Under the pieces are notes generated by a model, which saw nothing but the letters and a program-made list of their open reading frames with translations, was not told where the DNA came from and did not search any database. 64,000 bases of DNA from a phage: assembly GCA_012646185.1 (NCBI GenBank), contig GCA_012646185.1_4706.1. One strand, 5' to 3'. A program made the translations under genes and the position numbers. Below are positions 7,513 through 62,608 of the stretch, one piece after another (positions within the stretch are counted from its first letter, which is position 1; every line of letters starts with the position of its first letter).

Positions 7513-7544
7513 CCCTCCTCCTTCCCTGTTGGGTTGGAGGAGGG
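7513..7544. terminator. conserved CT/GA hairpin (CCCTCCTCCTTCCC-TGTT-GGGTTGGAGGAGGG)
   Basis: Member of the intergenic hairpin family; lies between convergent genes. Confidence 0.6.
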
Positions 7545-10042: not shown

Positions 10043-10066
10043 GAATGAAATCTCGCTGGCTTACTT

Positions 10067-10093
10067 CACTTAAGTAATATAGCCGTGAAAAAT
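10067..10093 (-). promoter_or_regulatory. conserved 25-nt motif copy 1 (plus strand TCACTTAAGTAATATAGCCGTGAAA)
   Basis: One of four near-identical intergenic copies; minus-strand reading contains TATATTAC. Confidence 0.45.
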
Positions 10094-11020: not shown

Positions 11021-11048
11021 AGCCTGTCCTTCGGGGCAGGCTTTTATG
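11021..11048 (+). terminator. intrinsic terminator (AGCCTGTCC-TTCG-GGGCAGGCT then TTTTAT)
   Basis: GC stem with TTCG tetraloop and 3' T-tract, 7 nt after the stop codon. Confidence 0.65.
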
Positions 11049-11116
11049 CTGTTAAATATCAGGAATAAGAATTAACAAAATAGGAAAATGGTGTGAATAT
11101 AACACAAAGGAGGGAG

Positions 11117-11662: not shown

Positions 11663-11694
11663 CATCCTCCCTTCCCTTACGGGTTGGGAGGATG
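11663..11694. terminator. conserved CT/GA hairpin (CATCCTCCCTTCCC-TTAC-GGGTTGGGAGGATG)
   Basis: Hairpin-family member between convergent gene ends. Confidence 0.6.
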
Positions 11695-22568: not shown

Positions 22569-22593
22569 TCACTAAGGTAATATAGTCGTGAAA
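22569..22593 (-). promoter_or_regulatory. conserved 25-nt motif copy 2 (plus strand TCACTAAGGTAATATAGTCGTGAAA)
   Basis: ~83 nt upstream (minus orientation) of the 21704..22486 start. Confidence 0.5.
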
Positions 22594-23286: not shown

Positions 23287-23318
23287 CCTTCCTCCAACCC
23301 AACAGGGAAGGAGGAAGG
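23287..23318. terminator. conserved CT/GA hairpin (minus-strand reading CCTTCCTCCTTCCC-TGTT-GGGTTGGAGGAAGG)
   Basis: Directly downstream of the 23335..24228 stop. Confidence 0.6.
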
Positions 23319-35252: not shown

Positions 35253-35284
35253 CCCTCCTCCTTCCCTTACGGGTTGGAGGAGGG
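35253..35284. terminator. conserved CT/GA hairpin (CCCTCCTCCTTCCC-TTAC-GGGTTGGAGGAGGG)
   Basis: Archetype of the hairpin family; between convergent gene ends. Confidence 0.6.
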
Positions 35285-44355: not shown

Positions 44356-44389
44356 CCTTCTCCCCTTCCCTTACGGGTTGGGGAGAAGG
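44356..44389. terminator. conserved CT/GA hairpin (CCTTCTCCCCTTCCC-TTAC-GGGTTGGGGAGAAGG)
   Basis: Between convergent gene ends; A12 run 15 nt upstream on the plus strand. Confidence 0.6.
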
Positions 44390-50725: not shown

Positions 50726-50750
50726 TCACCTAGGTAATGTAAGCGTCAAA
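50726..50750 (-). promoter_or_regulatory. conserved 25-nt motif copy 3 (plus strand TCACCTAGGTAATGTAAGCGTCAAA)
   Basis: Between the family hairpin and the 49140..50576 start (minus orientation). Confidence 0.5.
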
Positions 50751-50784
50751 TTTTTTCTATTCGCAACAATAAACGGCATAGAAA

Positions 50785-50814
50785 CCTCCCCCAACCCTTA
50801 CGGGCTGAGGGAGG
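50785..50814. terminator. conserved CT/GA hairpin (CCTCCC-CCAACCC-TTAC-GGGCTGA-GGGAGG)
   Basis: Downstream of the major structural gene stop in minus orientation. Confidence 0.6.
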
Positions 50815-53945: not shown

Positions 53946-55556
53946 ATGGACCCAAAACAGATAGCCATTAAGATTATTACGTTACTGTTTCGTAATGCAC
54001 AATTGAACCATCCCGATCCCAGTACGATCGAACATGTTAAATCCGTCTTAGATAAAGTCGAACCCCCGAAAAACCATCTCGCTACAGACGTAGATAGAGA
54101 GGTTTTCAACAACCTGATGAATACCATTCATTGGATGTTGGAACAACCATTATCGGAACCTTTCGATAAACAACAGTTGTTACAAAGGATACGTTTGGAT
54201 TGCCTTGAACAAAGCAATCTTTACGAGATTCTTGCCGACGGACTGTACGATATCGAAGACGACGCTCATATCAGTAAGGTCTGTTCGCTCTATTACAATG
54301 AATTACGTAATCTGATTACCCGGCGTCGTGTTTTCGAAACCTTTAAAAACACGTACATGGATATCAGTAACGGGCGACTTGGGGATAAAGAATTTTTCGA
54401 TGCGATGGCGAATCTGAAATTATCGCTAGACAGTATCGAAATGGATACCGAAAATCCCGAAGAGATGTCGTGTATGATTGACGGCTTTATCGCTGACAGC
54501 GAAGACGATATCGAGAAAGTTGAACGTATGTTCGTCAAAGCGATGGAACGTAACAGTCCTGAAGGTGGATTTGTAACCGGCTGGCAAGGCTTTAATAAAA
54601 TGTTGGGGTCGGTCGGCGTTTTACGTCGCGGTACCTTAGGACTGATTGGTGCAATGCAGCACCGGAACAAGTCAGGCGTGTTGTTAAAACTGTTCACACA
54701 TCTGGCATTGTACAACAAACCCCATTTCTTTTTCCCAGAGCGAGCAAAGAAAGCATTACTGATTCATTTGTCGACAGAAAACGAAGTGGAAGAAAACACG
54801 CTTCAGATATACAAGAACATGCGAGAACAGGAAACGGGCGAATATGTCGATATTCGTAAGATTGACCCTCGCGAGGCATCACGTTATGTGTTGAAGGTGT
54901 TCAACGATGCGGGTTTCTCTGTTTGTATGCGTCGTGTTGATGGGATGAGTTATAAACAACTCGCTAATCTCATCGACCATTTCGAACGCATGGGTTATGA
55001 AGTCATGGCGTTGTTCATTGACTATCTGAAAATGTTCTCATCGGAAGGGTTGGATAGAAATGGACCGACCGGCGCATGGCTCCAAGAACTCTTCAACAAA
55101 GTCCGTAACCTCTGCAGCGTTAAACGTATTTTAGGTATGACGGTACACCAGCTGTCATCCGATGCGAAGATGCGTGCGCGTGATGGTAACGATGAAGAGT
55201 TTGTTGACCAGGTCGCAGGTTTAAGTTACTGGGATGGTTGTAAAGGGATCGACCGTGAGATTGACCTTGAGGTGATTGTTGATATCGTTAAGGAGCCGGG
55301 CAAACGTCAAAGTTGGCAGGTCTTTGCGTTAGGGAAAGACCGTCAACCGGATAACGGTTCAACGAAACCTGAAGACAAACATTTCGCGATGCCATTCCAA
55401 ACCATCGGGATGCTTCCTGATGATTACGGTAAGAAAGCAGTATACTGCCGCAAGGTTGGCGGACAACCTGTCTCCGAGGGAGGTAAAGGTCCGTGGAACA
55501 AGTTCGATGAAAACGCAGCACCGAGTAATGAATTACAATTTGATTTAGAATTTTAA
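53946..55556 (+). CDS. hypothetical protein (536 aa)
   Basis: First ATG (53946) has AAAGGA SD; track start 53862 is GTG and would overlap the divergent gene. Confidence 0.55.
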   Translation: MDPKQIAIKIITLLFRNAQLNHPDPSTIEHVKSVLDKVEPPKNHLATDVDREVFNNLMNTIHWMLEQPLSEPFDKQQLLQRIRLDCLEQSNLYEILADGLYDIEDDAHISKVCSLYYNELRNLITRRRVFETFKNTYMDISNGRLGDKEFFDAMANLKLSLDSIEMDTENPEEMSCMIDGFIADSEDDIEKVERMFVKAMERNSPEGGFVTGWQGFNKMLGSVGVLRRGTLGLIGAMQHRNKSGVLLKLFTHLALYNKPHFFFPERAKKALLIHLSTENEVEENTLQIYKNMREQETGEYVDIRKIDPREASRYVLKVFNDAGFSVCMRRVDGMSYKQLANLIDHFERMGYEVMALFIDYLKMFSSEGLDRNGPTGAWLQELFNKVRNLCSVKRILGMTVHQLSSDAKMRARDGNDEEFVDQVAGLSYWDGCKGIDREIDLEVIVDIVKEPGKRQSWQVFALGKDRQPDNGSTKPEDKHFAMPFQTIGMLPDDYGKKAVYCRKVGGQPVSEGGKGPWNKFDENAAPSNELQFDLEF

Positions 55557-55582
55557 ACGCAAAAAAAAAAGATTGTGCGGTT

Positions 55583-55615
55583 CCCTCCTCCAACCCGTAA
55601 GGGAAGGAGGAGGGG
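55583..55615. terminator. conserved CT/GA hairpin, inverted orientation (CCCTCCTCCAACCC-GTAA-GGGAAGGAGGAGGGG)
   Basis: Exact reverse complement of the 35253 copy; between convergent gene ends; A10 run upstream. Confidence 0.6.
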
Positions 55616-55630
55616 TTATGACCGCTTTGA

Positions 55631-55957
55631 TTAACTTATTGTCATGAATTCATTAGGTGAAAATTTCCAGCCGTTCTCAGTGAGAAGCGTGTTGAGTTTC
55701 GCTGCAACGATAAGCCATGCATGCATGGCTGTTACATCGTATTGGCGATTCACTCGACGTTGGTTTTCGATATTGATTTGCTCCTGTTCAGTGATGTTTG
55801 GATAAAGTGCGATAGCGCTAGGTTTACCCAGCGCGCTAGTCATCACCGCCGTACATTCACTGATAATGTTGTTTAAGTGGTAGTTATACACCGTTCCACG
55901 CATGACGCGATGACGGCATTCGATAATAGCGTCGTAAATGATTTCTCGAGTAATCAT
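55631..55957 (-). CDS. hypothetical protein (108 aa)
   Basis: ATG start, weak SD. Confidence 0.5.
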   Translation of the reverse strand: MITREIIYDAIIECRHRVMRGTVYNYHLNNIISECTAVMTSALGKPSAIALYPNITEQEQINIENQRRVNRQYDVTAMHAWLIVAAKLNTLLTENGWKFSPNEFMTIS

Positions 55958-55963
55958 GATAAT

Positions 55964-56365
55964 TTAAAACATACGGTCGTTTTTAGCACGGGCGTCCATT
56001 ACCAGATCGTAGATGCCTGCGGTTCGTAAGCACTCTTCGTAGTAACGATGTGTGCCTTCCTCAGCCATCCACGATAACCCACGGCTATCCGCAACAATAA
56101 CCAGTTTGTTATTGTTGAACGCACACACCACACGGTAGGTCGCGTTGTTATTCGGATCGCGAGTGATAAGTTCGTAAACGCCGTTAACAGGTTTACTGAA
56201 TTCACCGTTTAACGGAACGAGTTCGGTAGTACCTTCAGCAAACGTTACGTTGATCGGTGATGGGTCTTTAGCGATAACAGTATATTCCACATTGTGTTCT
56301 TTACTGGTCATAATACCGAAGTAAGAACTCACAGGGGAACGTGGTACACTAAGAATATTAAACAT
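55964..56365 (-). CDS. hypothetical protein (133 aa)
   Basis: ATG with AAGAGGA SD. Confidence 0.55.
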   Translation of the reverse strand: MFNILSVPRSPVSSYFGIMTSKEHNVEYTVIAKDPSPINVTFAEGTTELVPLNGEFSKPVNGVYELITRDPNNNATYRVVCAFNNNKLVIVADSRGLSWMAEEGTHRYYEECLRTAGIYDLVMDARAKNDRMF

Positions 56366-56435
56366 AGATGTTGTCCTCTTAATTGGATTTAGATTGTTGG
56401 GTGTGTTATTGGGAAATGAAAACGTTGTTTCGGTT

Positions 56436-57005
56436 TTAGACGATGAGTGACCAGGTGGTAAGCACCCCGCTTGCGAATTCGAGCTTAAGACGTTTACCGA
56501 TAAGTTGTTGTTGGATCATCTTCTCGGTGATACGTCGATCATGCTGAACCGCTTTATCAAACGCTTCTTTCGCTTCAGCTTGGTAGAAGTTCGTTTCTTC
56601 GTTTTCGTCGATCTCTTCGAGAGCATCGTCGTCGATGTCAGCAAGTTTCACTCGACCGTTTTCATCAGGTTGTTCTGCAGGTTCATTGTCATACGGCGTG
56701 TCTTTTGTTGGTGCGACACGATGTTGCAACTCGACCTGCGTTAACATGATCTCCATCTCACCATCGATAGGAATGATTTCATCGGCGCTGCCGTTTTCGG
56801 TCAGCTCTCGACTTTCCAGTAATGTCGTCGTAACAGAGAACACCTCTTCAACAGGAACCTCATCATCGTCGATGGTGTTAACCGTATTGCTGGTAACTTC
56901 GGCAACAACCATCAAATCAAATGCGTGAGGGTCACCTGGCATTTTGATTCCTGGAAGTTTGTTGAGGTACCAAGGATCAAGAATCATGATTTCTGGATTA
57001 AACAT
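56436..57005 (-). CDS. highly acidic protein (189 aa)
   Basis: ATG with AAGGT SD; Asp/Glu-rich (DDDEVPVEE, DIDDDALEEIDENEE); ~200 nt downstream of motif copy 4. Confidence 0.55.
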   Translation of the reverse strand: MFNPEIMILDPWYLNKLPGIKMPGDPHAFDLMVVAEVTSNTVNTIDDDEVPVEEVFSVTTTLLESRELTENGSADEIIPIDGEMEIMLTQVELQHRVAPTKDTPYDNEPAEQPDENGRVKLADIDDDALEEIDENEETNFYQAEAKEAFDKAVQHDRRITEKMIQQQLIGKRLKLEFASGVLTTWSLIV

Positions 57006-57207
57006 CGTATTTTACCTTTCTATGTTAGGTGGATTGCGGATAGAAGAATCAATGCATAGATTGATAGTTCTTTGTTAGAAATTATTGCCGAACCGGTTAT
57101 GGTTATAACGCGTGTTTTCGTATTCTGACGGGTCGCGTATTAATAAGGCCATGACTGTATCCTCGATTATTAAGAGAAATTTACAACGATAACAGTAACC
57201 GCTGTTA

Positions 57208-57232
57208 TCACCTAGGTAATGTAGTCGCGAAA
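57208..57232 (-). promoter_or_regulatory. conserved 25-nt motif copy 4 (plus strand TCACCTAGGTAATGTAGTCGCGAAA)
   Basis: 35 nt from the family hairpin at 57268; same arrangement as copy 3. Confidence 0.5.
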
Positions 57233-57267
57233 TAAACTGGAGTAATGCGAAATAAGACAGCATAGAA

Positions 57268-57299
57268 CCCTCTCCCAACCCATCAGGGAAGGGAGAGGG
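57268..57299. terminator. conserved CT/GA hairpin (CCCTCTCCCAACCC-ATCA-GGGAAGGGAGAGGG)
   Basis: Directly downstream of the 57304..58671 stop. Confidence 0.6.
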
Positions 57300-57303
57300 A
57301 ATA

Positions 57304-58671
57304 TTAAACGGTTGGGCGAACGGTGTTGTCTTTTTCTGGTGCAAGCCATAACGTGACCGTACCATGGCATGTCCACTGTGGTTCACGTACAGAAGAACCT
57401 GCCATCGTAACAGCACAATCGGTACGCATGATAACCCCGTATGCTTCGCAGAGATTGTTATCCTGCATCCACACAACTTTAGCAGGCATGCCAGGATACA
57501 ACAAATCCATGTTTGCGTATTCCCACACCAACTGCATTGTTCTGCCGCGTAATCCAGCAGTATTACTTAATTCACGCCATCGGTTATCGGTTACGCGCCC
57601 CATCCCTTTCGCCACCTTCACGTTATCGCTACGTTCTTCAGTTACGTACTCGCTAACGTTTACGGTACGACTGATTATCGTATCACCCCCTTTTGATAAT
57701 GTCATTCCCTGACTCATCTGACTTGCCGAAACAAAACGCCCGCCCGCATTACCTAACAACGAAGCCGCGTTATTGATGTCGCTTACCGACGCCCCTCTCG
57801 TACATGCAATTTCCACGTATTTGTCACGATTGATCCAGGTCTTGTCCATGCCCGGAAACATATCGGCAGGATAGTTGTAAAAGATAGCCGTACGGCGGCC
57901 ATCAGAGAAACGGGTTTCGTCATAGAGAGGATAAATATACAGATACGGGGATTGATAATAACAACCGACATCCGCTGAATAAATACCGACCTGGTTCTGG
58001 ATTTTGTCTACGAGATCCATTGCGTTGGTACCGTGTGGAAGAATAAGCAACTTGAACAGGTTGTCGTTATTCGGTGCAACAATATCCACACCCTGCATTT
58101 TGAACCCGGTATCGGCTTCAACCGCAGAAAGTATCTTGCTGAATTCGAGCCGTAACACATCCAGCACTTTCGACCCGGTATAGTTTTCACCGGTTTCTGA
58201 TTGCATGAAGCTTTCAAGAACAGGATCGAACAGTTGAAATTGAAGATCGACCATTTGTTCGTAGTCTTTCTTCGAAGAATCGGTTGCGGTACGTTCGTCG
58301 TTAGCAGACATACGACTGTCTACGGTTGTTAAACAAACCGCCCGGTAGACGTAAGCTTGCGCAGCATCGTCTACGGTTTGGCGTTGTCCGCGCATCAGGC
58401 TGTACGCCTGCACGATGATGCGCATTTTAAGTTGTTGTTGGTATGGTAGAATGTATTTTCCGTAACTGCCCGGTGGGAACTTTACAGAAATATAAAGTTC
58501 ATCCCCTGCGTTACGTTCATAGTCTCGATACGTGTGGACTTGAGTCACTAAAGGAACAGACACCGTCATTGACGGCGTGATTAATTCCGCGGTGACTTTA
58601 TACGCAACAGCAACTGCTTCCTGCGCAAATGTACCGATATACCGTCCTAACGGCGTCTGTTTGTAATCCAT
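57304..58671 (-). CDS. hypothetical structural-module protein (455 aa)
   Basis: ATG start; tightly packed with neighbours. Confidence 0.6.
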   Translation of the reverse strand: MDYKQTPLGRYIGTFAQEAVAVAYKVTAELITPSMTVSVPLVTQVHTYRDYERNAGDELYISVKFPPGSYGKYILPYQQQLKMRIIVQAYSLMRGQRQTVDDAAQAYVYRAVCLTTVDSRMSANDERTATDSSKKDYEQMVDLQFQLFDPVLESFMQSETGENYTGSKVLDVLRLEFSKILSAVEADTGFKMQGVDIVAPNNDNLFKLLILPHGTNAMDLVDKIQNQVGIYSADVGCYYQSPYLYIYPLYDETRFSDGRRTAIFYNYPADMFPGMDKTWINRDKYVEIACTRGASVSDINNAASLLGNAGGRFVSASQMSQGMTLSKGGDTIISRTVNVSEYVTEERSDNVKVAKGMGRVTDNRWRELSNTAGLRGRTMQLVWEYANMDLLYPGMPAKVVWMQDNNLCEAYGVIMRTDCAVTMAGSSVREPQWTCHGTVTLWLAPEKDNTVRPTV

Positions 58672-62520: not shown

Positions 62521-62608
62521 CGCAGATTCCTGTTTGAAAGATAAGATATCACATGATGGTCGACAGCATAAAGCCCACCCCGAAGGGCGGGCTGTTTATG
62601 CGTACGGA

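Follow-up and report, generated by a model that had tools for sequence, protein, structure and literature searches.

The window analysed here is a stretch of 64,000 nucleotides of phage DNA (GenBank assembly GCA_012646185.1, contig GCA_012646185.1_4706.1). Between positions 55000 and 59000 it has 97.1% DNA identity to Escherichia phage vB_EcoM_Goslar, a jumbo phage of 237 kb that forms a nucleus and belongs to the genus Goslarvirus, family Chimalliviridae. An open reading frame of 189 aa lies on the minus strand at 56436-57005, where the earlier note had reported it, with an ATG start and a GAAAGG Shine-Dalgarno-like sequence upstream. Its counterpart in Goslar is HOV27_gp046 (YP_009820731, "hypothetical protein"), which has an equal length and 98.4% amino acid identity; the two represent the same gene with allelic differences only, and are both called gp046 below. 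A full-text search of the literature returned no function or comment for Goslar gp46/gp046, and the supplements of two further Goslar papers likewise contain nothing on it.

The acidic gene and its neighbourhood

The gp046 homologue is a real gene under strong purifying selection. Comparison of twelve distinct Goslar-like alleles, which come from the window, Goslar, IMG/VR and metagenomes, shows differences at up to 80 of 570 nucleotides and in very few residues, with a mean dN/dS of 0.03 and a dS of up to 1.1. This value, the annotated match in Goslar and the existence of a sister clade that keeps length, termini and acidity indicate that the reading frame is more than a chance ORF. The features of the locus, all on the minus strand, are as follows, with the evidence in brackets.

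55560-55625, minus strand: terminator hairpin with T-run, end of the early unit (-32.4 kcal/mol, z = -6.2; T10 run)
55631-55957, minus strand: third gene of the unit, homologue of Goslar gp044, 108 aa (synteny, 40% identity to the sister clade, RNA-seq class)
55964-56365, minus strand: second gene of the unit, homologue of Goslar gp045, 133 aa (synteny, 42% identity to the sister clade, RNA-seq class)
56436-57005, minus strand: acidic 189-aa coding sequence, homologue of Goslar gp046 (ORF, 98.4% amino acid identity, pI 4.15, net charge -27, dN/dS 0.03)
56598-56714, minus strand: codons 98-136, main acidic segment, probably flexible, holding the conserved [IF]DE[NG][ED]E (pLDDT, segment charge, alignment)
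56778-56876, minus strand: codons 44-76, first acidic segment (DDDEVPVEE ... ESRELTENGSADE), partly a low-confidence loop (composition, model, segment charge)
57075-57263, minus strand: annotated gp047 ORF, 62 aa in Goslar (sequence, promoter position, read density)
57208-57223, minus strand: candidate early promoter motif TACATTACCTAGGTGA, heading the gp046-gp045-gp044 unit (TAYATTACYTWRGTGA count, RNA-seq blocks)
57268-57299, minus strand: terminator hairpin, end of the upstream late operon gp052..gp048 and 5' boundary of the early unit (-26.6 kcal/mol, z = -5.1)

In the direction of transcription, the order on the minus strand is gp051, gp050, gp049, gp048, a hairpin, the annotated gp047, gp046, gp045, gp044 and a second hairpin. 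According to the cryo-EM preprint on Goslar (10.64898/2026.04.21.720040), gp051 is the tail terminator, gp050 the stopper and gp048 the spike cap (T4 gp27-like). Past the second hairpin follow a convergent DnaB-like helicase (gp043), the vertex protein gp042 and the major capsid protein gp041.

Both hairpins belong to a motif, CCCTCYCC-TT-CCC-NNNN-GGG-TT-GGRGAGGG, of which a motif search found seven copies in the window against 0.09 expected, at 7520-7537(+), 11670-11687(+), 23294-23311(-), 35260-35277(+), 44364-44381(+), 55590-55607(-) and 57275-57292(-). Every copy closely follows a stop codon on its own strand, which suggests operon terminators whose sequence is unusually conserved. Two of them bracket gp047-gp044, and the same hairpin follows the corresponding genes in a phage of the sister clade (contig CACVHJ010000001.1, here L002; L002:9375-9405). 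The earlier note had placed the acidic gene downstream of "motif copy 4"; this holds in so far as the copy at 57275-57292(-) lies just upstream of the gene and fits the seven-copy hairpin motif.

The three genes gp046, gp045 and gp044 are conserved as a block between the two clades, with identities of 28%, 42% and 40%, respectively. Relatives of gp045 were found only in the same two clades as gp046. In the sister-clade contig three extra genes (468, 446 and 103 aa; L002:4793-7966) precede the corresponding trio of 195, 140 and 113 aa within the same early unit, and have no Pfam match. The smallest of their products, with 103 aa, has an N-terminus resembling a signal peptide (MRAVAFILAALLSSTAYA) and a pI of 4.1. 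A paralogy of gp046 and gp045 was considered on account of their common MFN start and rejected at a BLASTP E of 0.12.

Early transcription of the unit

Per-gene RNA-seq data for Goslar at 30 min, comparing ChmA knock-down with a non-targeting control, are available in Supplementary Table 2 of Armbruster et al. (bioRxiv 10.1101/2023.09.20.558163). On ChmA knock-down gp044-gp047 show log2 fold changes of +0.7 to +1.3 (gp046 +1.06 to +1.19), while the flanking genes drop to about -4 to -5.5 (gp041-043) and about -2.5 to -3.8 (gp048-050). According to the same authors the knock-down transcriptome represents the early (5-20 min) programme of the virion RNA polymerase in the early-infection vesicle, and structural genes need the nucleus (10.1101/2023.09.20.558163). 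As its transcript is ChmA-independent, unlike those of the flanking structural genes, gp046 is an early-class gene inside a late structural neighbourhood. The class switch coincides with the hairpin at 57268-57299, from -3.2 in gp048 to +1.1 in gp047/046. The read density of gp046 at 30 min is approximately 1.3 reads/nt in the published RNA-seq, similar to that of the polymerase genes and the capsid gene. The DnaB-like helicase gp043 (53946-55556, plus strand), which converges on the gp046-044 unit, belongs to the ChmA-dependent (late) class with a log2 fold change of -4 to -5.5, in contrast to the polymerase-containing block gp037-040, which is early-class.

Within gp001-gp050 of Goslar the published RNA-seq distinguishes exactly four early-class blocks, gp004-001, gp021-014, gp040-037 and gp047-044. 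Each of them (4/4) is headed by a match to the 16-nt motif TAYATTACYTWRGTGA, which a pattern search over both strands found four times in the 64 kb, with 0 matches expected from shuffles. All four lie on the minus strand, at 10066-10081, 22569-22584, 50726-50741 and 57208-57223. An identical 16-mer occurs in the sister clade right after the spike-cap gene (L002:4726-4741, plus strand). We regard the motif, from its sequence and positions, as a candidate early promoter of the virion RNA polymerase. Its core resembles TATATTAC, which is reportedly the early-promoter consensus of phiKZ. A scan for sigma-70 promoters gave fewer matches than in shuffled sequence and is uninformative for this phage.

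The promoter copy at 57208-57223 lies within the annotated gp047, downstream of its ATG (57263), and the read density of gp047 in the published RNA-seq is about half of that of gp046. With its ATG upstream of the promoter motif, gp047 is probably mostly a 5' leader, and as annotated is probably not translated from the early transcript. A micro-ORF of 25 aa (57075-57152, with a GAGGA ribosome-binding site) in the leader of about 200 nt is possibly the sole translatable part of gp047. An Rfam scan of 55400-57500, leader included, returned no match.

A second type of motif, T(T/C)TATGC(T/A)(G/T)T, has four matches against 1.03 expected, at 11043-11052(+), 57051-57060(-), 57257-57266(-) and 62563-62572(-), and a further site at about 50775-50785(-). 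It sits directly 3' of terminator hairpins and 50 nt upstream of gp046, and may serve the non-virion RNA polymerase as a TATG-type late promoter, in which case late transcription of the gp046 unit would be possible too.

Distribution, charge and predicted structure

The trio has no match in Pfam, PHROGs, NCBIfam or PADLOC, and hmmscan against Pfam-A at E <= 0.1 assigned gp046 to no family. An exhaustive phmmer search of 1.84 billion representative proteins returned one close and one distant relative of gp046 (the latter with 30% identity over the full length); an extra match (P0003) was discarded as a spurious repeat protein. A profile search of 5.8 billion clusters extended this to 18 proteins, all from only two clades, the Goslar-like proteins and a sister clade of 195-197 aa on contigs of about 255-259 kb. 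The sister clade keeps length, termini and acidity at 28% identity. IMG/VR and JGI metagenomes were scanned, with the back-translated C-terminal motif as a further query; only Goslar-like alleles of 96-99% identity were recovered, and tblastn against 50,697 phage records found Goslar only. The alignment shows conservation in the first ~45 residues, in a strand centred on IDG near residue 80, in helix 137-168 and in the C-terminus, L-x-G-x-x-L-x-L-E-F-x-x-G-V-L-x-x-W.

PhiPA3, Desertfox and RP12 have no positional orthologue downstream of the spike-cap gene and carry unrelated genes there. With no PHROG match and a presence in two clades only, gp046 is not a member of the Chimalliviridae core genome, and the distribution of its sequence relatives identifies gp046-gp045-gp044 as a lineage-variable early accessory cassette. 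In Erwinia phage Desertfox the analogous variable region downstream of the spike-cap gene holds gp311 (L009:7859-8254), a non-homologous protein of 131 aa with a pI of 4.05 and 26 D+E against 6 K+R, which may be a functional analogue. JADA, an early chimallivirus activator of Avs5, was considered as a relative and is an unrelated protein of 721 aa.

The earlier note had described the protein as very rich in Asp and Glu, in clusters, with few basic residues. This description is confirmed: the acidic clusters TIDDDEVPVEEVF and LADIDDDALEEIDENEETNF are both in the protein, which has 42 D+E (22%) against 15 K+R (8%), and the charge calculation proposed at that time gives a net charge of -27 and a pI of 4.15 at 21.4 kDa. 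The basic residues are gathered in the C-terminal ~45 residues. With a net charge per residue of -0.143, gp046 is the most acidic of the 59 proteins called in the window (next -0.060; median pI 5.6).

The acidity is retained in the sister clade, where the whole protein has a net charge of -42 to -44. The main acidic segment (98-136) has a net charge of -12 in the Goslar-like proteins and of -20 to -22 in the sister clade, at 16% identity between the clades. The retention, and even increase, of the charge in spite of this low segment identity points to selection on charge rather than on sequence, as judged from the alignment.

Prediction of the structure with AlphaFold2 from the single sequence gave no usable model (pLDDT 38), while an alignment of 19 sequences gave a model of moderate confidence (mean pLDDT 61, pTM 0.51). 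Its core, at pLDDT 70-84, comprises strands 5-8, 29-44, 80-95, 172-178 and 181-188 and a long helix 137-168. Residues 57-76 and 98-132 have a pLDDT below 50 and coincide with the acidic segments, so in the model most acidic residues are presumably in flexible segments and not on a rigid, DNA-shaped surface. Fold comparison revealed no similarity to Ocr, ArdA or any solved DNA or RNA mimic, and a sequence profile search of the PDB returned nothing below an E of 0.17.

Possible functions of gp046

One of two roles suggested in the earlier note, an internal virion protein ejected with the genome, would suit an acidic protein whose gene lies near structural and inner-body (PF12699) genes, and is contradicted by the virion data. 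LC-MS/MS of CsCl-purified Goslar virions reports proteins down to about 4 copies per virion (10.64898/2026.04.21.720040, Table S4). Neither gp046 nor YP_009820731 is present in the protein sheet of this table or in the alphabetically early part of its peptide sheet, where the gp046 peptides AVQHDR, DTPYDNEPAEQPDENGR and EAFDK are absent as well (10.64898/2026.04.21.720040). The predicted tryptic peptides of gp046 include lengths of 9, 15, 16, 17, 26 and 30 residues; with several detectable peptides to be expected, a purely technical reason for the absence is unlikely, even considering that acidic peptides ionise poorly. Furthermore, Pfam detects in gp046 no PF12699 domain, the domain of the abundant injected proteins, and gp046 is early-class, whereas the known virion proteins are late-class. 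Its ejection with the genome appears very improbable. The same table lists gp045 and gp052, plus PhuZ and chimallin as carry-over (10.64898/2026.04.21.720040). The early-class gp045 was found in virions at about 4-9 copies from three peptides (10.64898/2026.04.21.720040), which may reflect carry-over rather than packaging because PhuZ and chimallin are listed at >80 copies.

We tentatively propose for gp046 the role of an early, non-virion polyanion that mimics nucleic acid and in this way acts on a nucleic-acid-binding target, a mechanism that we consider plausible if short of probable. Most likely it is a host-directed "takeover" protein. The injected virion RNA polymerase would transcribe gp046-gp045-gp044 from the TACATTAC-type promoter before the genome leaves the early-infection vesicle, and gp046 would be translated in the host cytoplasm and not packaged in virions. 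The protein would consist of a small alpha+beta core, formed by one long helix together with the conserved strands of the N-terminal, central and C-terminal parts, on which two poorly ordered, strongly acidic segments are displayed. These polyanionic segments would imitate the phosphate backbone and occupy the basic nucleic-acid-binding surface of the target, with the folded core supplying target specificity. The target would most likely be a host protein, among the factors that act on phage mRNA where it lies exposed, on host DNA or on host transcription. Plausible candidates, in a phage with already shielded DNA, are RNase E, nucleoid proteins, RNA polymerase or a defence that senses nucleic acids; a type I restriction enzyme is less likely.

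Small size, a pI below 5, richness in D+E, conservation of the charge in the sister clade and early expression (a ChmA-independent transcript and the promoter motif at 57208-57223) are all features of gp046 that fit the mimic class. High acidity, however, is not specific to mimicry. The low amino acid divergence within the Goslar lineage, acidic segments included, is not the signature of an arms race and speaks against mimicry, and the conserved co-transcription with gp045 and gp044 may mean that gp046 functions as part of a phage complex and not against a host target.

Two known takeover proteins are instructive for comparison. Dip (gp37) of Pseudomonas phage phiKZ inhibits the RNA degradosome by means of acidic patches that occupy RNase E's RNA-binding segments (PMC4980113). 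Like gp046 it is an early-expressed, persistent chimallivirus protein, and its alpha+beta fold is novel and without structural homologues (PMC4980113); gp046 shows neither sequence nor fold homology that would place it in the Dip family. Gp44 of Bacillus phage SPO1, also an early takeover protein, combines an acidic, flexible DNA-mimic segment with small domains and inhibits the host RNA polymerase (PMC8208478). It is unrelated to gp046 in sequence, phage and host, and has a DNA-binding motif of which there is no sign in gp046, where, in contrast, the few basic residues are confined to the C-terminal helix and strands.

Mimicry in its classical, anti-restriction form, which belongs to the other role suggested in the earlier note (a DNA mimic that blocks restriction or other DNA-binding defences) and in which gp046 would bind the DNA groove of a type I R-M, BREX or similar system in the manner of Ocr or ArdA, is a quite unlikely explanation. 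In Ocr and ArdA the carboxylates are arranged on rigid, elongated, DNA-shaped dimers. The acidic residues of gp046 are instead found in low-confidence loops of the model and presumably flexible, with no rigid B-DNA-like carboxylate array, and no family profile (Pfam-A 0, NCBIfam 0) or fold relates it to either protein. What gp046 has in common with Ocr (T7 gp0.3) and ArdA is to be small (about 21 kDa), very acidic (pI 4.15, 22% D+E) and, as the role requires, made at the start of infection or DNA entry (PMC3439906, PMC2731889). Nucleus-forming phages shield their DNA from restriction enzymes in the early vesicle and the phage nucleus (10.1101/2023.09.20.558163), and this enclosure makes anti-restriction the less likely form of mimicry. 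The interpretation in the earlier note is therefore partly supported: a possible mimic made early is retained, and the virion role is rejected.

A serious rival, although we judge it unlikely, is that gp046, gp045 and gp044 are the subunits of one phage-internal complex in an early process specific to chimalliviruses, such as vesicle function, genome transfer or nucleation of the nuclear shell; the acidic segments of gp046 would then bind a basic phage protein or cations rather than mimic nucleic acids. Early expression, strong purifying selection and the co-transcription of the trio, in an order conserved in the only other clade having any of it, are all in favour of such a complex, as are the few copies of gp045 in virion preparations. 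None of the trio is basic, however (pI 4.15, 5.35 and 6.82), and its absence from the other chimalliviruses examined, including PhiPA3, Desertfox and RP12, together with the lack of a PHROG match, implies that no core step of the nucleus-forming life cycle is concerned. A histone-chaperone-like role with a basic operon partner was considered and rejected, neither partner being basic. We give little credence to a role in the assembly of the neighbouring tail-hub or head proteins, as a chaperone or scaffold that would be acidic, transient and missing from the finished virion; this is the outcome that the earlier note had named as refuting its proposal. Many scaffolds and chaperones are acidic, gp046 is absent from virions, its gene is flanked by that for the spike cap (gp048) and by the block of the major capsid protein, and early transcripts persist through the whole cycle. 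Nevertheless, none of the flanking structural genes shares the transcription class of gp046 (log2 fold change +1.1 against -3 to -5), which has its own candidate early promoter and is insulated by terminators. Three unrelated genes separate its homologue from the spike-cap gene in the sister clade, and structural genes are conserved across chimalliviruses, whereas gp046 is not.

A more specific version of the takeover reading, which we regard as improbable, is that gp046 is a cytoplasmic polyanionic decoy with a new fold, acting at the vesicle stage with gp045 and gp044 as partners. It could shield exported phage mRNA by a Dip-like block that hits RNase E or an RNA-targeting defence; alternatively, it could blind a nucleic-acid-sensing immunity directed at jumbo phages before the nucleus is formed. 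If true, this would be a counter-defence aimed at the one thing that nucleus-forming phages cannot hide.

At present gp046 is an early-made hypothetical protein, already annotated in Goslar, without family or fold assignment. More immediately useful are the 16-nt early-promoter motif and the terminator hairpin, which delimit early units of Goslar-like genomes, and the evidence for gp047, as annotated, being mostly 5' leader. The DNA of nucleus-forming jumbo phages is hidden from restriction and CRISPR, which makes these phages candidates for phage therapy; their first minutes in the host cytoplasm, before the nucleus exists, are poorly known. The early product gp046 is highly expressed and under strong constraint, and its charge is both extreme and conserved. 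Should it neutralise a defence or a host factor that binds nucleic acids, it would reveal the threats that such phages still face; if not, it is one of many lineage-specific early proteins.
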